Shown piece after piece: positions 49,099 to 60,538 of a stretch of DNA of 64,000 bases. The translations under genes were made by a program, and so were the position numbers. The notes beneath the pieces are model-generated. The model worked only from the letters and a program-made list of their open reading frames with translations. It ran no database searches and had not been told where the DNA came from. Every line of letters begins with the position of its first letter. Within the stretch, counting starts at the first letter, position 1. This DNA is from Patescibacteria group bacterium (lineage in GTDB: Bacteria > Patescibacteriota > Patescibacteriia > UBA2591 > JAQUPP01): assembly GCA_028716665.1 (NCBI GenBank), contig JAQUPP010000001.1, positions 192,467 through 256,466 on the forward strand. The letters run 5' to 3'.

Positions 49099-49165
49099 GA
49101 CTTTATCTTATCACAAATTTTCCTTTTGACAAATTTATTTAATTATGATAATATGAATAAATTAT

Positions 49166-49240
49166 GCCGCTATCGTCTAGTGGTTAGGACACCAGGTTTT
49201 CATCCTGGTAACCGGGGTTCGATTCCCCGTAGCGGTACCA
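49166..49240 (+). tRNA. tRNA-Glu (anticodon TTC) with an encoded CCA
   Basis: Acceptor GCCGCTA/TAGCGGT, anticodon stem CCAGG/CCTGG, loop TTTTCAT, T-loop TTCGATT, 3' ACCA. Confidence 0.85.
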
Positions 49241-50720
49241 AACCTACTTTTTGATGCGTAGATTGCTCAATCAGCTGATAGATAAGCGATATTTCGGCGG
49301 TTCCAAACTTCCCAGCTTTATATGTCACTCTTTGAGGAAATATAAGATTTTGAAATCGCTGTTTCTGTTCTAAATTCATATCGAACCACAATCTTGGAAT
49401 ATTCTTAATAAATTCTAGAGCATAATCAAGAGCTGATTTAATATCAAACTCTTCAATAATGGACTCGTTCATAGATAGCCTAGTCACGGCTATTTTTTCG
49501 TTTATACTCTCTTTTTCTTTAAGAAATTCTTCGTCGGTGAATAATTCTTTCTTTTTCATCTCAATAATTTTTTCTTTTTCTTTCTCTAATTTTTCTAACT
49601 CTTTTTTATATAATAAATTGTCCTGATTTAAATCTTTATATTTTTCCTGCCAAACATCAAGAACAATTTGTTTAAATAATTTTATATAATTTTCCTTGGG
49701 AGTAATTTTTTTTAAAAACTTTATAAAATCTTTTTCTATTTTGACTTTATGAATAGCTTTAGCGTAATGGGAACATTCCCGATTATGACAATGATAATAG
49801 GGGTATCTTTTGTTTCTTCCTCGAGACCAACTGGCCGTTAGGGGTTTTCCGCAATAACCACAAATGACAAAATGTCTTAAGGGAAATTCTGGATTTTGTC
49901 CATTTCTTGACCCTGAGTTAACGGATCTGCCCCGCATAATTAATTGCGCTTTCATAAATTCTTCCATATTTACCATCGACTGGTGTTTTCCTTCTATTTC
50001 TTCCTTGGTCCAAGGATTAATCAGTATTCCAGCATAAAATTTATTATTAAACATTTTTTTTATTGTTTGGGGATACATTGTATGACCCTTTTTTGTTGTT
50101 AGCTTCCATTGGTTTGCCATCTTGGCGATATCAGTAATAGAATAGATGCCTTTTAAATATTCTTTCCAAAGTTTTTTAACTAATTTAAATCTTTTTTCAT
50201 CAGGAATATCAATTTTTCTTTCTGTTCTGTCTCTACTCGCCTTATATCCGGTGGGAGGCACCCACGGCCAGATGCCTTCTTCAATTCTTTTTTGCATACC
50301 GCCAATAGTTCTTATTGTTCTTATGTCATTATCAAACTGAGCAAAACCAGCTAATACAGTTTCCATTAAATGCCCTTGAGGGTCGTCACCAATAGGTTCG
50401 GTTACAGAGTGGATACTTACTCCATATTTAGTTAATAAGACTTTAATACCAAAATGGTCGGAAGCATTTCTGGCAAGTCTGTCAACTTTCCAAACAATAA
50501 GGGCATCTACTTTGCCTTTATTCGCCTGACAAAATTCTAAAAGTTTAAGCAATTGAGTTCTTTCCTTGAATTTAGCCGATTCTCCTTCTTCTATAAATTT
50601 TTTAAAAACTTGAATTCCTTTATCTTTGGCATATTCAAGACAAGCCTTTTCTTGCATATCAAGGCTGGTCCCTTGTACCTGTTCTTTTGATGAAACACGA
50701 CAATAAATTATTCCATTCAT
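49200..50720 (-). CDS. Large serine recombinase (phage-integrase type)
   Basis: The resolvase domain IIYCRVSSKEQ contains the catalytic Ser. ALIVWKVDRLARN follows. A recombinase domain and zinc ribbon CGYCGKPL..YYHCHNREC are present. The last ~12 codons are read from the tRNA-Glu 3' half. Confidence 0.85.
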   Translation of the reverse strand: MNGIIYCRVSSKEQVQGTSLDMQEKACLEYAKDKGIQVFKKFIEEGESAKFKERTQLLKLLEFCQANKGKVDALIVWKVDRLARNASDHFGIKVLLTKYGVSIHSVTEPIGDDPQGHLMETVLAGFAQFDNDIRTIRTIGGMQKRIEEGIWPWVPPTGYKASRDRTERKIDIPDEKRFKLVKKLWKEYLKGIYSITDIAKMANQWKLTTKKGHTMYPQTIKKMFNNKFYAGILINPWTKEEIEGKHQSMVNMEEFMKAQLIMRGRSVNSGSRNGQNPEFPLRHFVICGYCGKPLTASWSRGRNKRYPYYHCHNRECSHYAKAIHKVKIEKDFIKFLKKITPKENYIKLFKQIVLDVWQEKYKDLNQDNLLYKKELEKLEKEKEKIIEMKKKELFTDEEFLKEKESINEKIAVTRLSMNESIIEEFDIKSALDYALEFIKNIPRLWFDMNLEQKQRFQNLIFPQRVTYKAGKFGTAEISLIYQLIEQSTHQKVGLVPLRGIEPRLPG

Positions 50721-51119
50721 AAATTTATTTTTTAAATAATAAAGGGTTAACCCTTACTTGGACACAATCTATTTCAAGAATAGATTATTAAAGCAGGTGT
50801 TAACCCCTATTTATCAAAACGACCGAAGTCGTATTGAATAAAAAATATTCTTGTTGATTGTGTCCACTGTTAATTATAGCGACTTGCAAGCTATCGTCAA
50901 GACGACAGCGATGTCGCCCCTTTTTTATTATGCTTAATTTCATCTTTCTGCCAAAAATCAAAAATAATATAAGCTTGAGCATAAAGATTATCTCTTATAC
51001 TCTCTATTTGTTGATCTGTTAAATTTTTGGCTTCTTTGCCGATAATCTCTCGGCATTTTTCTAAATCAAGCATATAATTTTAACTAATAAAGATACATTC
51101 GACCCTAAAATCGCGTCTA

Positions 51120-51515
51120 TCACGCTCTCTCACGCTCTGTCGATGCTCCCTGCGACTGATAGCCGTCCAGCATTGGTCTTATAACCTCATGTATATAATT
51201 TCTAGCTTGCGCGATAGCTTGCCCTACAGACCTTAACGTTTTCTCGTCGCTAAGAATGGCAAGTTCTTTTGTTTTCAAGTCAAAAATGTCCCGAATAACC
51301 GACTCCAAGTCTATATAAAACCAATCATTGTTTTGATTATGATTTTTTCGGAGAATATATTGACGTTCATCTGCCCAAACTTCTAAATCCTCGTCTATCC
51401 GACAAATTAATTGTTGTTTTGATAGTTTCATAATTTTAAATTTTGAATTAATTATCTCTCTATAGATAGATGGCGAAAATTCGCCCTCTTTACCCCAAAA
51501 ATAAAAAACCCTCAT
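51120..51515 (-). CDS. Hypothetical protein (131 aa or shorter)
   Basis: ORF in the island with an alternative start MKLSKQQ. Confidence 0.4.
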   Translation of the reverse strand: MRVFYFWGKEGEFSPSIYREIINSKFKIMKLSKQQLICRIDEDLEVWADERQYILRKNHNQNNDWFYIDLESVIRDIFDLKTKELAILSDEKTLRSVGQAIAQARNYIHEVIRPMLDGYQSQGASTERERA

Positions 51516-51564
51516 ATTTATGAGAGTTTTAATGACAACTATTATAACTTATTAAGGTGATTAA

Positions 51565-52548
51565 TTATTCATTGTCATCGCGTATTTTTGGCGTTTGTTC
51601 CTTATAAAATTCTTCTATACCTAAATCATCTTTATCATTCCTATTTTTTGAATCTTTTTTTTCTACATCTTCCGATTTGAGAGGAATTAATGTAATTTTT
51701 ATCTGATATGAATTTACTTTTTTCTTTTTAAGGGGATTGTAATGATTATATGGGAAAAATGGGTCATAATCTATTTTAAAATAATCTTGAAGATTTTTTG
51801 CTAATTTTTCTTTAGCTTTTATATATGAATCCTTTGCTTCTGAATTTTGAGGGGTTATTTCTCCATAATTATCTGCTAAAATCTTTAAAAATGTCCATTG
51901 TATATCTGGTTTTGTTTGCCTCTTGTCTTCAAACCCCATTGTTTTATAGCTCAACCTTTCTTTATATTGTCTAACTTGAATTAAAATATTCTCTTTATCT
52001 TCAAATTTAATAATGAAATTTTCCCATATTGTTCCAGCTGGCAGTTTATAAGGGAACTTACCTTCATTTGATGATTTATTCTCTTGAATAATGGTGTCTA
52101 AAAATAATTTTTCATTAGCCATTCTGAGAAACTCTTTGTATTTATCCCTGCAATCTATAACCAATTTTTTTAATTCTTTATAATATTTATTCCACAATTT
52201 CTCTTTTTCCCCTCCAGCATGTCTCATTTTGGGGTGTAATTCGTATATATCGACAGGGCCCTCTTCAAACTTAAGTTCGTTATCAGAAAAATGTGTCTCT
52301 ATAAATTTCCACAAAGAGTCAAATGATTTGTTAAAATCTTTATAATTTTTATTTAATCCAAGGTCTCCATATTCTGATAGAATAGTTTTTGAATATCCCG
52401 CATATTGAAAAAATATTTCACTATGAGGATTAATAGAATATCCATTATTATACAATTCATTAAGTAAACAATATATGCCTTCTTCGGGGAGGATTTTTAA
52501 GAATTTTTTAAATCTTCCTTTGTCGCTAAATTCTTCTATTGAGTCCAT
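51565..52548 (-). CDS. Hypothetical protein (327 aa)
   Basis: ORF in the island. Confidence 0.5.
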   Translation of the reverse strand: MDSIEEFSDKGRFKKFLKILPEEGIYCLLNELYNNGYSINPHSEIFFQYAGYSKTILSEYGDLGLNKNYKDFNKSFDSLWKFIETHFSDNELKFEEGPVDIYELHPKMRHAGGEKEKLWNKYYKELKKLVIDCRDKYKEFLRMANEKLFLDTIIQENKSSNEGKFPYKLPAGTIWENFIIKFEDKENILIQVRQYKERLSYKTMGFEDKRQTKPDIQWTFLKILADNYGEITPQNSEAKDSYIKAKEKLAKNLQDYFKIDYDPFFPYNHYNPLKKKKVNSYQIKITLIPLKSEDVEKKDSKNRNDKDDLGIEEFYKEQTPKIRDDNE

Positions 52549-52866
52549 ATTAAATCTTTAACAAAAATGTTTATATAGATATATAATATCATATATAAAA
52601 ATTTTGTCGCCTCTGGACATTTGTTATTTTTATGTTATCATGAAAATAACAATTTAATTTGCCTAAACTCATGGATTTTCTGTGGGCATGGCAATAAAAC
52701 CTGTGATGGATATTGAGCTCGTCGTTAGAGCACCATCACAGGTCTATATCCGAAAGGGTGTAGGGTGACGCAAGTCATCGCTAGCGGCGGGCTTTATGTA
52801 TTCCCGCCAAAAAATTTAAAAAAATAAAAGTTGAGTTAACATAATTAATAATTAATTTTTATTTAT

Positions 52867-53538
52867 ATGGACAAAGAAGAAAAGAAACTTATTACTAATA
52901 ATAACAGCCCTGAAACTTTTGACTCTTCTTCCTCTGCACATCATTTTAAGGGTAGTGAAGAAGAGAAAAGACTTACTGATCTTGTAGATGAACAAAAGAC
53001 TACTATTCAAGAAAAGGATGAATATATTTCATCTCTTGAAGAAGCTCTTGAAGAAAAGTCTATCGAAGAAGAAACTAAAGTTAAAAAACTTAGCGACAAT
53101 AATTTTTTAAAAAGTAAAAACCATAAAGTTTTATACATCATTATTACTGTTTTAGTTTTAATTATTATCGGTGGCGGACTTTTTTTCTTTTTGGGTAACA
53201 ATGATGTGCGAAAAGAAACACAAGCACCTAAAGGATTTGTTGATTGTGGTGAGACAACAGCATATCCTTCATGTTTTTTAAACAGAATGAATGAATGCTT
53301 GCCCGTAACCGAAAAAATGATGGACACAGACGACTCAGGAAATTTTATAGAGATAACAATTTTAGGGAAAGAAAATGAAACTTGTCATTTTCAGGCAAAG
53401 ATGAATAATATTTTAATAAGTGACTGTTATTTTCCAAAAGGGACGCTACAATATAATACTATTTGGCAAACCCTTGGAAGCTACAATGGCTCTAGCTCGC
53501 AAAAAGCAGTTGATGAGAACTGTAAGTCAGGATGGTAA
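52867..53538 (+). CDS. Hypothetical membrane-anchored, Cys-containing extracytoplasmic protein
   Basis: Acidic N-terminus, one TM helix (VLYIIITVLVLIIIGGGLFFFL), then a Cys-containing domain. Confidence 0.5.
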   Translation: MDKEEKKLITNNNSPETFDSSSSAHHFKGSEEEKRLTDLVDEQKTTIQEKDEYISSLEEALEEKSIEEETKVKKLSDNNFLKSKNHKVLYIIITVLVLIIIGGGLFFFLGNNDVRKETQAPKGFVDCGETTAYPSCFLNRMNECLPVTEKMMDTDDSGNFIEITILGKENETCHFQAKMNNILISDCYFPKGTLQYNTIWQTLGSYNGSSSQKAVDENCKSGW

Positions 53539-53574
53539 ATAGCACCGTGTAGTAAAATTTGACGTTATAAAAAT

Positions 53575-54573
53575 ATGAAAATAAAACAATTAATAAAAAA
53601 ATGCCCAAGAAGTTTAGAAGATGTTTTTATAGAAAAAATTACTAAACTCGCCATTAGTAAATTAGGAGGAAAAAACGCAGAAGATATCAAAAATAAAGTT
53701 GAAGAAATTACAAAGTTGTCATTTACTGAAGAAAATCTATCTAAGATATTAAAAATTTTAGAAGAATTACCAATAAATAATATTTATAGATTAGAAGAAA
53801 AAGATGGAACTATATCTCTTTGGCAGATTGTATCTTCTTTATTTTTTTGGGGATGGATTCTGATTTTGCTATTTCTCCCCTTTATTTATTATGAAGAATT
53901 TATGGAAAAAATAGATAATCCTTATGGTACCCTAATCTATATCTTGGCAACCACGTTATACTTATTTGTACCGCTTGGCATTTTATTTGCCTTTCGACCA
54001 AAATGGACAAAGGAAGTAAAACAACCAATAATTAAAAAAGATGATAAATTTATGAAAGAAAAAAATAATAAAACTATATCTCTTTGGCAGACTGTATTTA
54101 TATGGACAAGCATTTGGTTTTTAATTCTTTTTTTCTTTCTTTATGGAGTGAGCGATAAAGACGCAAACCTTCCTTATGCCCTATTATTAAGTATTTTTTT
54201 ATCTATACCGCTTGGCATTTTATTTGCCTTTCGACCAAAATGGACAAAGGAAGTAAAACAACCAATAATTAAAAAGCCGCAAAAAATAAAACAATTAATA
54301 ATTAAGTTATATTTTTTAATAAAAAGATACATGGCAGAAATGTTTGTAATTTTGGGTGCTTATCTTGTTGGGATAAATTCCACTCCCAAACAACAATGCG
54401 ATTCTTATAGTGGGTCACCTTTTTTTTCACATATATTGGGAGGAGGGGAAGGAGAGACGTGGACATGTTGGAATACTTACAATAAAGGAGCATTGGGCAT
54501 AGGGTGGATTATTTTGGCCTTAGGAATAGTTATTTTAGCAAATAGATATTTACCCAGGAGAGATAAAAAATAA
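53575..54573 (+). CDS. Hypothetical polytopic membrane protein with an internal duplicated module
   Basis: The segment (K/P)PLGILFAFRPKWTKEVKQPIIKK occurs twice, from a ~72-bp exact DNA repeat at ~53975 and ~54205. Confidence 0.5.
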   Translation: MKIKQLIKKCPRSLEDVFIEKITKLAISKLGGKNAEDIKNKVEEITKLSFTEENLSKILKILEELPINNIYRLEEKDGTISLWQIVSSLFFWGWILILLFLPFIYYEEFMEKIDNPYGTLIYILATTLYLFVPLGILFAFRPKWTKEVKQPIIKKDDKFMKEKNNKTISLWQTVFIWTSIWFLILFFFLYGVSDKDANLPYALLLSIFLSIPLGILFAFRPKWTKEVKQPIIKKPQKIKQLIIKLYFLIKRYMAEMFVILGAYLVGINSTPKQQCDSYSGSPFFSHILGGGEGETWTCWNTYNKGALGIGWIILALGIVILANRYLPRRDKK

Positions 54574-54574
54574 A

Positions 54575-55294
54575 ATGAAACTAAAATTAGCCACAAGAAT
54601 TTACATATGCTCATTCATCGTAATTTTTGGTTTAATTATTTTTTATCATCAATACAATATTGATTCAATAAACAAAAAAGAAAAAGAACAAAAAGAAGCG
54701 ATCAGAATCCAATCTTGGGAAAAAGCTCACCAAGAAGCCGAGGATGCGCTGCATTATGGCGAATTACATCCCAACGAGCCATATTCTGACGGAAAAGAAG
54801 TACTATCTCCCAATGGCGAATTATCGGTTTTTGTACAAAATTATCCGGACAGACCTAGTTTCAAGCTTAATGAAATTTGGATACGAGACAAAAAGAATCA
54901 CACGGAAAAATTATTAGTAGGGAATATGTTTGAAAATGATGTTCTCTGTGATTTTTCCTCAATAGTTTTTTCTTTTGATGCAAAAAAAATTTATTTTAAT
55001 AATTATAATGATGGACAAAATGATGAAATTTATGTTGCTGATATTTCTACTGGCGTATTAAAAGATATTTCAGTTGGCGATCCATTTGACGTTATAACCA
55101 AAGGAGTATATAAAGGAAAATTGTTTACCTCAAAACATAAATATTACGAAGAAGGAGGTTCTTATGACCATTGGTATATTATTGATGAAAATGATGGTCA
55201 TGAAATTAAAGATCTCGGCGAATCTACACCACTGGAAAAATTGAAAGAGGAATATGGTTTACTCCACTTATTTTCTGAATTGAACAGTGAGTAG
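54575..55294 (+). CDS. Hypothetical N-terminally anchored secreted protein
   Basis: ORF starting 2 nt after the previous stop, with an N-terminal TM segment. Confidence 0.5.
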   Translation: MKLKLATRIYICSFIVIFGLIIFYHQYNIDSINKKEKEQKEAIRIQSWEKAHQEAEDALHYGELHPNEPYSDGKEVLSPNGELSVFVQNYPDRPSFKLNEIWIRDKKNHTEKLLVGNMFENDVLCDFSSIVFSFDAKKIYFNNYNDGQNDEIYVADISTGVLKDISVGDPFDVITKGVYKGKLFTSKHKYYEEGGSYDHWYIIDENDGHEIKDLGESTPLEKLKEEYGLLHLFSELNSE

Positions 55295-55472
55295 CACAAC
55301 AAGGTAATTTTCTAAATAGTTTGAATAATTTTGAGGGCAGGGGTATTTAAAAAATGCTTTATTCAAGCAGTTTTTTTATTAACTTTTTCGTTAAAAATGC
55401 TATAATAAAAAGAGTTTATATAATTATAAAAAAGATAAAAACTATTCATAAATATTAGAAAAATTAGCAAAT

Positions 55473-56135
55473 ATGAGGAATAAAAAATATACAAATCCGA
55501 GACCCCAAATACCTGTAGCAACTAAACGAGAAATTAAGATTGAGGCTCGTCATTCTTGTTTAGTTTGCAAGGAAAGAGTTTCTTTAGTTTTACATCACAT
55601 AGATGGGAATCGTGAAAATAATGACTCCGATAATATTATTAACATATGTAGTAATTGTCACGGCATGGTGCATGATGGGAAAATCACAGCGATTGAACTA
55701 CGTGAATACAAGCGTAAAGTAAAAGAAGGTGACGAAGAATTGATTAAATTAAGAGAAGCGGTAAGTTACCTTTTAGGTTCAAAACAAATCAGTATCTCAA
55801 GCGATTTTGGAAAATTAAAATTTAAATATCAAAACCTATTAAATGATTACGGAGATAAATTAATTTTTTATCAGTCTTTTGTTTTTCTTATCCCAGAATT
55901 TTATATTGATAAGCGTGGCGAAGAAATTAGGGCTGTGGTGAGGGATTTACTAAATTTATCTTCAGATGAAGAAAATATGATTATCACCCACCTTATTAGA
56001 CTTGATTTAATTGAGATTATTGGAGGTTTGATTATCCTGAAAAATAAGGATGATGCAAAGACAGCTCTTAACGAATTAATAAATTCTCATAAAATTGAAA
56101 TAAATAAGCTTATCAAAAAATTTGTTGAATTATGA
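55473..56135 (+). CDS. HNH endonuclease domain protein (N-terminal HNH plus ~150-aa unknown C-terminal domain)
   Basis: CLVCKERVSLVLHHIDGNRENNDSDNIINICSNCHGMVHDG shows Cys pairs and H-N-H spacing. The stop overlaps the next start (ATGA). Confidence 0.6.
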   Translation: MRNKKYTNPRPQIPVATKREIKIEARHSCLVCKERVSLVLHHIDGNRENNDSDNIINICSNCHGMVHDGKITAIELREYKRKVKEGDEELIKLREAVSYLLGSKQISISSDFGKLKFKYQNLLNDYGDKLIFYQSFVFLIPEFYIDKRGEEIRAVVRDLLNLSSDEENMIITHLIRLDLIEIIGGLIILKNKDDAKTALNELINSHKIEINKLIKKFVEL

Positions 56136-58561
56136 AAAATCAGAAACAAATTTTATCAAAATTAATGAATCTTGATAATAAACAGGCTGATAAGTATCTG
56201 TCTAATTTTGCTAATGAAATTAAAAAAAGAATCATTTCCAGTAAGGATAATGATAAAATATTTGAAGCAATTGATATTCTTCGTGAGTTTGTTTATAAAG
56301 TTCCAAAGCAGACTATTAAGATAGTTAATCATATCATTCACAATCCGAAAGAGCCGAAATTAATAAAAAATCCAATAAGGTTTTTCTATGGTAAAAGCCA
56401 TTTGGATGTGGTTATAAAAGCATTAGAATTACTTGACCAACTTCGTTATATCTACGCCGATGGTGTTTTACCTATATTAGAAGAAATTATTTTGACTGGG
56501 GGTAAAGATGAAAAAAATAAAGCCATTGAAATTGTAAAACATTTTACAAAGTATGATTTTAATGTTCTTTCTAAATCAAAAATTGGGTATGGAGCACAAA
56601 GGAAAATCCTTGATTACATTTTGGTATGGTCGATTGAAAAACAAATTGAAAATTTTGATTTTATTGAAGTAGCCACACAAGAACTTTTAGGATCGTCAGT
56701 AGAGGGGACGACATCGGGAATAAATAAAGAGTCACAATATACCTTAACAATGCATTTTGGAGTTGTTCAGCCAACTGATTTTTTAAAAAATATTCGCCGT
56801 GAGACGATTAATTTAATATTCAATCTTTATAAAAACGTAACTGACGAACAGAAAAAGATAAGATTAGTAAAAATTCTTGAAGAGGCAGTAAGGACACCGA
56901 TTAATGTAGTTTATAGTGAAAACGTAAGAAAAATGATTATTGATGACGCTCAATATTTATTAACTATTTATAGAGAGATGCTTTTTAAGGACGGTAAATT
57001 AGTTGGTAGTATTCCAGTCGCTGAAGAAATAGAGAAGAGGTTTCATTGGTTTTATAGAAGTGGAAAATTAGATACACTTGAAGCTAGAAAATTAAGGAAA
57101 GATATTTTGACAGATTCTTTCTATTCTATATTTCGTTTATTTGCTGGCGATGATATTGTTTTTCGTGAAGAAGAAGGCCGAGACAAAGCAGAATCAAGGC
57201 GTGGTCAAGCTATTGATACTAAAGTCGCAGAGATTGATGACTCTAATTTAAATAAATGGATTAATACTCTTAATAAAGTTGCAGAACAAATTGGTTTTGT
57301 AGCCGATTGGCAATTTAATCCTTTTAAAATGTTTCTAAGAAAATTAGCCGCAAAAAAACCAGACATAGCCTCAACGATATTTAATGATGCTCTAGATAAT
57401 AATAAACCGATGAAAAATCTTGCTACGCATATTTTAGATGGTTTTCGTGATATTGGTCGTCTTGATTTATGGGATACAACTGTTGAAAAAATAATAGATA
57501 AGCAAGAAATTAATTTAATCAGTGCAATTATATATTCACTTAATATCAATAGAGAAGGATTTGATTTGTCAAAAGAAATTCGGGAACAGGATTTAATATT
57601 ACTTGAAGACATTGTCAGACTAACTGGGAATTTCACTTTTCTCACTAATCAAGAAGGAAATAATTGGACCTTACAGTACGCCATTATTAATGCGCTCACA
57701 AGGAATTTCAAGCGTGATCCTATCCGTATTGAAGCTCTTATACTTGAAATGATTCAAAAATATCAAGAAAAAAAAGACTCTCTTGTTAGAGAATTGGAGT
57801 TCGGGATTATAAGGGGAGGGGTTGATTATAGCGAATTTAGTAAAAAGGGTATTAATCTTTTAAAATCATTACTTGTGGAATTAGATAATTTAGATTGGGA
57901 CGCCCAGCACCTATTATTGAATCTTGGCAAAAAGGATATTCAAATAATCTTCGACATATTTTGGGATAGAATCGAGAAAGGTTCAAAGAAAAGAAAGGGT
58001 AAAAAAATTTTTGCTGAGGTGGAACGTTATCAGGCAATTCCTTACTATTTTAATGATGATTTGAAAAGATATCTTTCTACTTATCCGCAATTTCAGGTTT
58101 TAATTAAGAAATGGCTTAACAAAGTCACTCTTACTTGGTCGCCATATAATTGGAATATCGGTCATTTTCTTAAAAAGATAAACTCATTAACAGTTGTAAT
58201 TAAAAATATGATTGAATGTGGAGATGAAAATAATTTGACCAAGGCTGTGCAATTAATGGATCAATTTGAAGGTGGCAATATAGAATTAAGTATCGAAATA
58301 ATTAAAAAAACTAAAAGTAAGAAAAATATAGGCCATATTGAAGGGATGTTATTTTCCACTGGTGTAGTTTCGGGAGAGGATGGAATCGCACGCGTCCATG
58401 AAGCAAAAGCAGAGACCTTAAAAAAATATTTAAACGACGGGAATAAGCAAGTGAAAAAATTTGCCAAAAAAATGATTAAAAGTCTTAAGGATAGTGCAAA
58501 AAGAGAACGTCAGAGAATCCAAGAAGAGAAGCAGCTACGCAAGGTCGAATTTGAGGGCTAG
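56132..58561 (+). CDS. Large all-alpha (HEAT/ARM-like repeat) hypothetical protein, translationally coupled to the HNH gene
   Basis: 809 aa with no P-loop. Helical repeat composition. A 4-nt overlap with the upstream HNH gene indicates co-translation. Confidence 0.55.
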   Translation: MKNQKQILSKLMNLDNKQADKYLSNFANEIKKRIISSKDNDKIFEAIDILREFVYKVPKQTIKIVNHIIHNPKEPKLIKNPIRFFYGKSHLDVVIKALELLDQLRYIYADGVLPILEEIILTGGKDEKNKAIEIVKHFTKYDFNVLSKSKIGYGAQRKILDYILVWSIEKQIENFDFIEVATQELLGSSVEGTTSGINKESQYTLTMHFGVVQPTDFLKNIRRETINLIFNLYKNVTDEQKKIRLVKILEEAVRTPINVVYSENVRKMIIDDAQYLLTIYREMLFKDGKLVGSIPVAEEIEKRFHWFYRSGKLDTLEARKLRKDILTDSFYSIFRLFAGDDIVFREEEGRDKAESRRGQAIDTKVAEIDDSNLNKWINTLNKVAEQIGFVADWQFNPFKMFLRKLAAKKPDIASTIFNDALDNNKPMKNLATHILDGFRDIGRLDLWDTTVEKIIDKQEINLISAIIYSLNINREGFDLSKEIREQDLILLEDIVRLTGNFTFLTNQEGNNWTLQYAIINALTRNFKRDPIRIEALILEMIQKYQEKKDSLVRELEFGIIRGGVDYSEFSKKGINLLKSLLVELDNLDWDAQHLLLNLGKKDIQIIFDIFWDRIEKGSKKRKGKKIFAEVERYQAIPYYFNDDLKRYLSTYPQFQVLIKKWLNKVTLTWSPYNWNIGHFLKKINSLTVVIKNMIECGDENNLTKAVQLMDQFEGGNIELSIEIIKKTKSKKNIGHIEGMLFSTGVVSGEDGIARVHEAKAETLKKYLNDGNKQVKKFAKKMIKSLKDSAKRERQRIQEEKQLRKVEFEG

Positions 58562-58946
58562 TATTAAGCGATAGTTGATAGTTTATATCAAATTTAAATC
58601 TCTACCGAGAAAATCTCAAAAAGTTGATGCTATCTTGATAGTCATCAATCTTAAATTATTTTATTTTCTCAATCAGAGGATTAATATATTTCCTACGAGG
58701 GCGAATAGTGGCTAAATAACTGTTTTTGCCTTATAATAAAGACTTTTAGAGCATTATCATTATTTTCCTGTGATGTCGCCTTTAATATCAGTGCTAACCA
58801 TTAAAAAACTTTATATTTAATACACGACATCGCTATCGCCTAAAATTTTATAATTTTAAAAAAATTTCTAGCACAGGGACTGTATTCTTACCGACCAAAA
58901 CAATTTTTTAGGGGAATACCCCCCCTAGGAAATTTGATTAAAATAT

Positions 58947-59621
58947 ATGAGAAAAGAAATTAAAAAACATAGTGATAAAAATGCTTTCAGAGGTATGAAT
59001 AGATATTTTAATGCGGACCTTGTTGTTGATTCAAATTCATGGGAAGAGTTATTTGAAAATTTAGAAAGATATAAAATTTCATCAAATTTTAAAAATCAAT
59101 CATTTAACGAATACAAATTATTTAATTTAACCATTAAAATAGAATATAAATTAACCATGATACTTGAATTATTTTTAAAAGAGGGAAAATTGGTAAGGTC
59201 AGAAGCGTATAAACATATTTTGGAAACATGCAAAAAATATAGAAGATTGATCACTAAAAAAGAAACTGAGAAACTCTTAAAAAGAGAAATGAAAAATGAT
59301 GATTCAAATCTTTTTAGTCCCCATGTACTATTTTATATCGCTGGATGTGGCCTGGGGGATATTCTCCATATTTTTGAGAATTGCACGGATAATTTTTCAG
59401 ATAAAGATAAAATTGTAAAACAATTAAGAGGCTTTAAAGATAAAAGGAATGATTTTACTCATAATTTGTTATCTAGCAGGATTAATTCATTTAAGCTCTT
59501 ATCAAGAGCATTATTGGTTGGTCAAAAATTATATAATACTTTCGACCAGATGATTGAATCGCATTTTATTCGGGATAGTATTGTTGGTAACAGAATGATT
59601 TACAAATTGAAACTAAATTAA
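58947..59621 (+). CDS. HEPN-domain Abi-like (Abi_2/AbiD-F type) protein
   Basis: RNDFTHN fits the HEPN R-x4-H motif within a helical ~220-aa protein, typical of abortive-infection HEPN proteins. It lies in the island. Confidence 0.45.
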   Translation: MRKEIKKHSDKNAFRGMNRYFNADLVVDSNSWEELFENLERYKISSNFKNQSFNEYKLFNLTIKIEYKLTMILELFLKEGKLVRSEAYKHILETCKKYRRLITKKETEKLLKREMKNDDSNLFSPHVLFYIAGCGLGDILHIFENCTDNFSDKDKIVKQLRGFKDKRNDFTHNLLSSRINSFKLLSRALLVGQKLYNTFDQMIESHFIRDSIVGNRMIYKLKLN

Positions 59622-59878
59622 AACTTTAGACAAGATTTATAATGAATTTAAAATGAGATAAAAATTATTTAATTACTGATTCAAATAACATACAGTAGTA
59701 TATATGTTTATTCTTAGAAAAACATAATTTATTACTAGCCCCATTTTTACTCATTGACACTTGCGAAATTCTCTTTATAATTAGCTATAATATTGCTCCA
59801 CAACTTTAAGGTTTCAATCAATTGATTCCAATTTTGAAGCGTCTGGGGTACCAAATTTAAAATATAAATTGAATCAAT

Positions 59879-60538
59879 ATGATAAGCATTAAAGAAATCA
59901 AAAATAATTCTTATGTCCAGGAATTTATTTATCAAACAGAAATTACTTTGGAAGCTTTAGAATATACCGAGCATGCTTTTCGTCATGCTAATCTAGTCTC
60001 TCAGAGATCAGAGGAAATAGCCAAAAAAATCGGGTTAAGTAAAAAAGAACAAGATATAGCGGCTATTGCCGGATTCTGCCATGATATGGGCAATTTTTTG
60101 GGTCGTCAACAACACCATTATTGGAGCGCCCTTCTTTTTAATCAACTTTTTCAAAAAGATTTTTCTCCCCAAGAATTAGCTTATATTTTACAAGCGATGG
60201 TCAATCATGACAAACAAACAATGAAAATAGTAAATAAAATTTCCGCAATTCTTATCTTGGCCGATAAATCAGATGTTCATCGTTCCAGAGTAACGGTTAA
60301 TGTTAAAAGCGCGAAAGCGGATATCCATGACAGAGTTAATTATGCAACAACCAAATCAGTTCATAAAATTGATCCTAAGAAAAAAAGAATTACCTTAGTT
60401 TTGAAAATTGACACTAAATTTTGTTCAATTATGGAGTATTTTGAAATTTTTACCGAAAGAATGACTTATTGCCGCGAGGCGGCCAATTATTTGGGCTATA
60501 AATTCGGCTTGATTATTAATAATTTTAAACTGCTTTAA
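59879..60538 (+). CDS. HD-domain phosphohydrolase
   Basis: H..H...GFCHDMG is an HD motif. Confidence 0.55.
   Translation: MISIKEIKNNSYVQEFIYQTEITLEALEYTEHAFRHANLVSQRSEEIAKKIGLSKKEQDIAAIAGFCHDMGNFLGRQQHHYWSALLFNQLFQKDFSPQELAYILQAMVNHDKQTMKIVNKISAILILADKSDVHRSRVTVNVKSAKADIHDRVNYATTKSVHKIDPKKKRITLVLKIDTKFCSIMEYFEIFTERMTYCREAANYLGYKFGLIINNFKLL

Follow-up and report, generated by a model that had tools for sequence, protein, structure and literature searches.

Organization of the locus

The stretch of DNA analysed here (the window, 64,000 nucleotides; positions 192,467–256,466 of contig JAQUPP010000001.1, assembly GCA_028716665.1, from a Patescibacteria group bacterium) contains a tRNA-Glu gene into which the reading frame of a large serine recombinase (LSR) runs from the opposite strand. 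We interpret the recombinase gene as the left end of a 10.6-kb integrative element of Patescibacteria (candidate phyla radiation, CPR), which has probably (with a probability of about 0.8) inserted at the discriminator/CCA end of the tRNA by means of its own LSR, the centre of its attachment site (attP) lying inside the LSR open reading frame (ORF). Coordinates of the features are collected in Table 1.

The integrated form of the LSR contains 506 residues, and the translation of the window ORF ends in ...KVGLVPLRGIEPRLPG, within a C-terminal stretch that reads ...HQKVGLVPLRGIEPRLPG. The TGA stop codon is the complement of 49200–49202, lies in the anticodon loop of the tRNA and overlaps the anticodon (49199–49201). 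The two genes overlap by 41 nt, of which 38 nt are sense codons and the rest is the stop codon. The first-pass annotation of this DNA had described the LSR 3′ end as being read from tRNA-Glu, which ARAGORN and the ORF confirm, and the C-terminal residues that it quoted are correct; its overlap of 37 nt stands as an overlap and differs from ours trivially in length. The Leu-Val codons of the LSR (49236–49241) are the complement of T72-A73-CCA-A, in which A73 is the discriminator and the last A lies one base past the tRNA. Residues 1–495 are encoded by the element, and the 11 residues that follow Val495 (PLRGIEPRLPG) are translated from the strand opposite to the acceptor, T-arm and anticodon stem of the tRNA. 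A promoter-like TTGACA-17-TAATAT is located before the tRNA at 49126–49154.

The protein contains the Pfam domains Resolvase (PF00239; E = 7e-35, residues 4–150), Recombinase (PF07508) and Zn_ribbon_recom (PF13408), a set that identifies it as a large serine recombinase, and it matches a PHROG integrase with an E value of 7e-87. Residues R8, S10, D80, R81 and R84 are invariant in 30 family members; all of them, including the nucleophilic Ser10, are retained in the window LSR. The predicted AlphaFold2 (AF2) model of a homologue (P0037) displays long helices at residues 348–426 and, in Foldseek, matches the full-length SPbeta, Bxb1 and phiC31 integrases with E values of ~1e-15. A Logan contig (L002, SRR22315505) is 99.9% identical to window positions 49193–51223 and differs at its end in the anticodon stem of the tRNA (tail ...GIEPRFTG versus ...GIEPRLPG in the window); the difference reflects either strain variation or an artefact of the contig end.

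Element ends and attachment sites

The window contains exactly two copies of the 9-mer GGTACCAAA, one at the end of the tRNA (the left attachment site, attL) and one at the right end of the element (attR). The element extends from about 49237 to 59850, with 10,613 bp between the two Val-codon positions. The repeat alone is weak evidence, since at least two copies were present in six of 100 shuffles of the window. A detached 33-codon segment (...VPQTLQNWNQLIETLKLW...) adjoins the attR repeat in frame, in the orientation of the recombinase, and resembles the C-terminal tail of those family members that have no adjoining tRNA; in tblastn searches, more than 15 family tails match window positions 59857–59747 (minus strand). 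Joining both window ends in frame gives a protein of 528 residues, which is the typical length of the family members with this type of tail (the WNQ-tail class, described below). The sequence places the crossover within T72-A73-C74 (49236–49238), i.e. in the Val495 codon on the minus strand. The block of identity between attL and attR, which is the 9-bp core in the window, measures 6–11 bp at other loci (more than 12), and the Val codon, which it always includes, is the only part common to all.

The far end had been guessed at ~59.7 kb in the first-pass annotation, with a core repeat expected near 59.6–59.9 kb, and the 9-bp repeat is present in this interval. The DNA to the right of the recombinase is cargo, as had been proposed, with a G+C content of ~0.30 across the element compared with ~0.35 in the flanks. 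A partial, attR-like copy of tRNA-Glu, which had been suggested for the far end, was not found: neither a 25-nt search with three mismatches nor k-mers of 10–14 nt detected a partial copy elsewhere in the window, and no part of the tRNA of at least 12 nt recurs in it. The element had also been described as integrating into a tRNA 3′ end and reconstituting it. The integration holds, and the reconstitution of a sizeable 3′ segment does not; only CCAAA lies inside the attL/attR identity block, and the tRNA stays intact.

Two tail classes and a fixed tRNA register in the recombinase family

A homologue search returned 2374 proteins at E < 1e-10, of which the best 120 (41–52% identity) were compared. 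All of these align collinearly as far as a near-invariant Val, beyond which they fall into two classes: tails that read like tRNA antisense (e.g. LVAGAGIEPAISRL and LVAPRGIEPLFPG) and tails of ~32 residues with the motif WNQII-EL--W. The 201 family proteins include 116 with tails of the tRNA-antisense type and 71 with tails of the WNQ type, and the split lies directly past the conserved Val. The tRNA-encoded tails share no sequence past what the tRNA dictates.

A scan of species-representative genomes for relatives of 40–48% identity yielded 80 family loci. Their hosts are mostly Patescibacteria and also include Acidobacteriota, Smithella, Bdellovibrionales, Ignavibacteriales and archaeal metagenome-assembled genomes. 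The ORF runs into an antisense tRNA at 44 of the 80 loci, with eight tRNA types represented (Met, Ala, Glu, Lys, Ile, Arg, Leu and Tyr), and the conserved Val codon (GTN) is located on tRNA positions 72–74 in every one of the 44. As a control, 77 more distant LSRs (23–33% identity, from viral contigs) were inspected; six read into a tRNA, and these six are among the closest to the family. The overlap is therefore not a matter of chance, as the same register is kept at 44/44 loci compared with an overlap in 6/77 distant LSRs.

With a crossover at the Val codon, a detached WNQ tail is expected on the recombinase strand at the far end of the element, which is where it is located. A hidden Markov model (HMM) of the WNQ tail detects detached tails 4–10 kb upstream of the recombinase at no fewer than 15 of these loci, and 73 of its 75 matches are on the recombinase strand. 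At 11 of 13 detached-tail loci, an identical core that contains the Val codon is present in frame 5–8 codons before the WN motif, and body and tail can be reconstructed in frame. Many of the detached tails are still open reading frames of the usual length. The same element was also observed in two states: its recombinase is joined to tRNA-Ala at one locus (L051) and to a WNS tail in a Logan contig (L168), with 99.1% nucleotide identity over 1528 nt that ends just past GTGGAC.

Other arrangements occur in the family. Acidobacteriota loci (L055, L066, L073, L081 and others) contain attached-tail recombinases in contigs of 0.3–2.1 Mb with no tRNA at the 3′ end; at L055 and L066, a tRNA-Pro lies 6 kb downstream of the recombinase. 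A search for circular contigs among the attached-tail family members found no terminal repeats. IMG/VR holds no family member at 40% identity or above, the best match being not above 33%. Four LSRs of 27–33% identity on predicted prophage contigs from this database (L095, L097, L098 and L091) run into antisense tRNA-His with tails like ...GAGDGVRTHVYRHHKPRS, and tRNA read-in thus extends past the studied family.

Four tandem mini-modules are located downstream of an intact, tail-attached recombinase in L016/L017 (11600–16600), and others are found in L081 (12700–14400) and L018 (~17000). Each mini-module combines a cargo ORF of its own, encoded on the opposite strand, with a copy of the conserved small ORF of ~70 residues, a hairpin, a GTGGTGG core and a WNQ tail segment, and its homology to the recombinase 3′ end starts exactly at the Leu-Val codons. 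The L016/L017-type arrays look like recombinase-less elements or cassettes with a common P′ arm (the tail-side half of attP).

At 42% of the tRNA-type loci (including L009, L012, L004 and L021), a strong hairpin, often followed by a T-run, is present on the tRNA strand immediately past the tRNA 3′ end, antisense in the recombinase coding sequence and 45 nt upstream of the Val codon; none of 20 attached-tail loci carries this hairpin. With this hairpin, the element may provide a terminator for the tRNA. An antisense tRNA terminator at the 3′ end of the window recombinase was considered and rejected, with the hairpin signal being absent (z = −0.4).

Comparison with related genomes

A metagenome contig (L083) with flanks that are ~90% identical to those of the window has neither the recombinase nor the 10.6-kb cargo. 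The two sequences are homologous exactly up to A73 (window position 49237) and again from window position 59658, 200 bp inside the right end, and L083 retains the detached tail and core. The tRNA of L083 ends in GCGGTA and is followed at once by a terminator; CCA is not encoded. Between these points (L083 8792–9975) is a 1.18-kb insert that contains three unrelated small ORFs, two of them with CxxC pairs, and no homologue of the recombinase or of the small ORF. Either the insert is a mini-element that was mobilised in trans, or it arose by precise deletion. In a more distant relative (L085), the gene order is tsaD, tRNA-Glu (with CCA), 40 nt, glutaredoxin and an HD-domain gene, with no insert, and the site is empty. 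The break in synteny at tRNA position 73 in L083 and the empty site in L085 support the integration junction that had been marked at this tRNA from the window alone.

Architecture of the attachment sites and coding of the native tail

Positions in the attachment (att) sites are numbered outward, with the third base of the Val codon as reference. In the consensus of 43 tRNA arms, TCGAACC, the antisense of the T-loop/T-stem, occupies positions 15–21, and in that of 21 tail arms T(T)GGAACC occupies positions 20–26, i.e. the same motif 5 bp farther out. In the window, the detached tail has TTGGAAT as its T-loop mimic, shifted outward by 5 bp relative to TCGAACC of the tRNA arm. This offset matches the rule for LSRs that the zinc-ribbon-domain motif lies 5 bp nearer to the centre in the bacterial site (attB) than in attP (Rutherford et al., PMC3783163). 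The offset is visible for the B and P′ arms only. Dyad symmetry of attP was tried as a description of the site and rejected, as the P arm fails to mirror the P′ motif.

Farther out in the tail, E-L-x-x-W (36–60 nt from the centre) is kept with free synonymous variation in an amphipathic, heptad-like pattern, and a helix is confidently predicted by AF2 at residues 507–527 of P0037. The synonymous variation and the predicted helix suggest that the tail, besides providing a binding site, most likely functions as an amphipathic helix. Native WNQ tails of the family end in -AA in 13% of cases and in -A in 26%, compared with 0.7% and 6.5% of background ORFs. The -AA tails (P0004, P0013, P0030, P0037, P0041, P0069, P0073, P0119, P0120 and others) resemble ssrA-like degradation signals that integration could remove. 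The native tail of the window ends in ...SVNE, not in -AA.

Proposed mechanism and alternative explanations

We propose that, in the circular form of the element, the ORF would continue for 33 codons past Val495 into an amphipathic 'WNQ' helix to give an enzyme of 528 residues, and that the DNA coding for this helix would double as the P′ half-site by mimicking the tRNA T-loop. Integration would join the T-arm and acceptor of the tRNA (the B half-site) to the recombinase body and produce the 506-residue enzyme, in which the 33 native C-terminal residues would be exchanged for 11 encoded by tRNA antisense. The helix-coding segment would be left 10.6 kb away at attR, beside the HD-domain gene of the host and together with a putative outward promoter. 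Excision would restore the attP junction AGCGTCTGGGGTACCAAACCTACTTTTTGATG and the attB junction CCCCGTAGCGGTACCAAATTTAAAATATAAATTG. The full-length enzyme would be the integration form, and the helix-less 506-residue enzyme would be either freed for attL × attR excision, perhaps with the conserved 58-residue protein encoded directly upstream of the recombinase, or disabled.

Whereas the anatomy of the element, its attachment sites and the in-frame exchange of tails, with their conservation across the family, are directly evident from the sequences, a functional role of the exchange in direction, stability or activity is inferred. As the integrating enzyme must carry the helix and the integrated copy cannot encode it, the most economical assumption is that this helix commits the enzyme to integration or prevents attL × attR recombination, and that an enzyme lacking it differs in directionality or activity; we put this forward tentatively, with the odds rather against it. 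The C-terminus of serine integrases is located near the hinge between the zinc ribbon and the coiled coil, where directionality factors act. In phiC31 integrase, the extreme C-terminus contacts the recombination directionality factor (RDF), and a C-terminal integrase–RDF fusion was used for the excisive synaptic complex (10.1101/2025.05.02.651858), which places the C-terminus where directionality is set. On a broader view, it is possible, if doubtful, that these proteins form a large, mostly bacterial clade of serine integrases in which the C-terminus of the enzyme reflects the state of its own DNA. The full-length enzyme of the circle would favour or lock integration and the helix-less enzyme of the integrated element would differ in directionality, activity or stability, a built-in switch that would replace or join an RDF, and the universal tRNA T-arm would serve as a half-site mimicked in the coding sequence; the clade may also mobilise recombinase-less mini-elements that pile up as cassette arrays (L016, L081 and L083).

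Several results weigh against integration at the tRNA end with an exchange of tails, at least in its simple form. The 528-residue form is not in the protein collection, in which the sole near-identical protein is the 506-residue form, and neither an excised circle nor an empty site of this particular element was found in the collections scanned. A degenerate attB/attP/attL/attR pattern gave no matches in metagenome and viral contigs, a result that is uninformative because the source population is outside both collections. Many WNQ-tailed members are located in long chromosomal contigs without an adjoining tRNA, which the simple model leaves unexplained, and the P arm, on the side of the recombinase body, has no clear mirror of the P′ motif. 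Of 32 tails, 29 use AAC for the Asn of the WN motif, also in AT-rich genomes, and conservation of the tail is hence partly at the DNA level, with the W-N codons doubling as a DNA site. Finally, there are two candidates for the crossover dinucleotide, GT (A73-C74) and TN (N72-A73, the palindrome TA in the window); GT is favoured because it is near-invariant, and the L083 junction points to TA.

The codon usage of the tail is also what would be expected if the exchange were a neutral by-product of a compact layout, with WNQ conserved only as a DNA site, both forms of the enzyme behaving alike and a separate factor (e.g. the 58-residue protein) setting the direction. TGGAAC(C) is conserved at the DNA level and located where the zinc-ribbon-domain motif is expected (PMC3783163), the tRNA-encoded tails have nothing in common beyond the tRNA-dictated sequence, and the small ORF accompanies the recombinase at most loci (66/80). 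We nevertheless regard this explanation as unlikely, as conservation at 36–60 nt extends beyond a normal att half-site and has the synonymous variation and heptad-like pattern of a protein segment, detached tails at many loci remain ORFs of the usual length and the AF2 model of the helix is confident. Quite unlikely, in our judgement, is a one-way, 'suicidal' integration, in which loss of the helix would inactivate the LSR and the element would be locked unless an intact copy arrived, in parallel to the SSV-type integrases. Such a scheme would fit the att site within the integrase gene (as in the SSV type; PMC8371274), the excess of integrated over WNQ forms in the databases (116 versus 71) and the recombinase-less insert between the same sites in L083. 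However, only the last 33 codons are exchanged, the enzyme retains all its catalytic and DNA-binding domains together with the invariant residues, the detached tails are intact and in frame, as expected with continuing excision, and one element is seen in two states (L051/L168).

A chance read-through of the ORF into the tRNA, with the island having arrived otherwise or being ancestral, has very little probability. The weakness of the 9-bp repeat on its own, as judged from the shuffled windows, would allow it, but the fixed register at 44/44 loci with eight tRNA types, the rarity of the overlap in more distant LSRs (6/77), the detached tail exactly at the predicted far end and the break in L083 synteny at A73 all argue against it. 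Integration of the element at the tRNA-Glu end by its own LSR, with attP centred in the recombinase ORF, is the interpretation that we prefer.

Cargo and other features of the element

Of the 80 family loci, 66 have a homologue of the 58-residue ORF that lies directly upstream of the window recombinase; without exception, the homologue precedes the recombinase on the same strand, in 28 cases within 230 nt. The ORF has no match in Pfam, PHROG or PADLOC; its product is a candidate directionality factor or regulator. The perfect sigma-70 consensus at the right end is within the region of the detached tail and is directed towards the HD-domain gene of the host (at 59879); its sequence is also conserved in L083. 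Once the element is circular, transcription from this putative promoter would enter the recombinase gene in antisense.

Apart from an HNH match, the cargo produced nothing but weak matches in PHROG and PADLOC. The HNH endonuclease-like protein (55473–56135) matches PHROG with an E value of 4e-8 and a ZorE-like PADLOC model with an E value of 3e-6. Its ORF overlaps by 4 nt that of an 809-residue protein with a weak PADLOC match to OloA (the pair spans 55473–58561), and the two may represent defence-type cargo. A viral origin of the element was considered and rejected on the basis of these scans and the absence of members above 33% identity in IMG/VR. A cargo ORF at 53575–54573, which encodes a predicted membrane protein, contains a 77-nt direct repeat (53962–54038 and 54199–54275; 97% identical, 237 nt apart), and a second, weaker repeat pair is found at 53772–53833 and 54036–54097.

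Table 1. Features of the tRNA-Glu locus and the element (positions in the window)
Feature	Position	Strand	Source
tRNA-Glu(UUC), CCA encoded, anticodon ttc	49166–49240	+	ARAGORN
LSR, integrated form, 506 residues	49200–50720	−	ORF; Pfam; PHROG
attL core GGTACCAAA, tRNA G70–A76 plus one base	49234–49242		
Conserved 58-residue ORF directly upstream of the recombinase	50897–51073	−	Homologues in family loci
Cargo, eight ORFs, mostly without family assignment	51120–59621		ORF calls, family scans
Detached native recombinase tail NLVPQTLQNWNQLIETLKLWSNIIANYKENFASVNE (then stop), also P′ arm of attP	59747–59857	−	tblastn, ORF, tail HMM
Perfect sigma-70 consensus TTGACA-16-TATAAT (12/12), putative promoter	59754–59781	+	Consensus scan
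attR core GGTACCAAA, right element end	59847–59855		

Comparison with known systems

The control of directionality in serine integrases is a central open question and limits their use in genome engineering. A natural family with two versions of the enzyme, for integration and for excision, would allow the 528-residue and 506-residue forms to be compared directly, and the elements give initial access to small mobile elements, and perhaps to genetic tools, for Patescibacteria. No description of this layout (attP in a serine integrase gene, at a tRNA) was found in the full-text literature, the coverage of which does not extend to subscription journals, and a large family of tRNA-end serine integrases with attP in their own ORF is apparently undescribed so far. 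The text of a large LSR survey (PMC10083194) is without any mention of tRNA, and the conserved T-arm and CCA end are a landing site for serine integrases that was not considered there.

The window LSR has the same domain order (catalytic domain, recombinase domain, zinc ribbon with coiled coil) as the LSRs of phages and mobile elements such as phiC31, Bxb1, A118/LI, SPbeta (SprA) and TP901-1. It shares with them short att sites that have few identical central bases and a motif 5 bp farther out in the element-side arm (PMC3783163). The similarity in sequence is only distant (Bxb1, E = 2e-7), and the family differs from these enzymes in that it targets the discriminator/CCA end of tRNAs and has the centre of attP in its own ORF, with the C-terminal helix being exchanged. 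In contrast to known LSR elements, those of the window family are small (4–11 kb), are not recognised as viral and have no known RDF.

As in the tRNA islands of tyrosine integrases (P4-like elements and those of the Islander/TIGER catalogues), the integrase gene lies directly beside a tRNA gene that stays functional, with the cargo beyond. Unlike these islands, the window has a serine-type enzyme as its sole recombinase and no duplicated tRNA 3′ segment at the far end, and the crossover is located at tRNA positions 72–74 and not in the anticodon or T loop. A second parallel is provided by the mycobacteriophages BPs, Brujita and Charlie, in which, as reportedly described by Broussard et al. in 2013, attP is inside the repressor gene and integration by a tyrosine integrase strips a C-terminal ssrA-like tag. 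The shared principle is an attP within a gene, such that integration alters the C-terminus of the protein; the gene affected here is that of the serine integrase and not a repressor, and the -AA endings are restricted to the 13% of family tails noted above, with the window tail ending in ...SVNE.

A further parallel, in gene layout, is offered by the 'suicidal' integrases of the SSV type from archaeal viruses and plasmids (SSV1, pTN3 and pT26-2), which likewise have the att site in the integrase gene, target tRNAs and have their gene altered and restored. These are tyrosine recombinases whose gene is fragmented by integration and restored by excision, and they were called exclusive to Archaea in a 2021 review (PMC8371274). 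The present enzymes are of the serine type, have mainly bacterial hosts (Patescibacteria, Acidobacteriota, Bdellovibrionales and others) and exchange only their last 33 codons. Our finding contradicts the view in that review of integrases with an att site in their own gene as a peculiarity of archaeal tyrosine recombinases.

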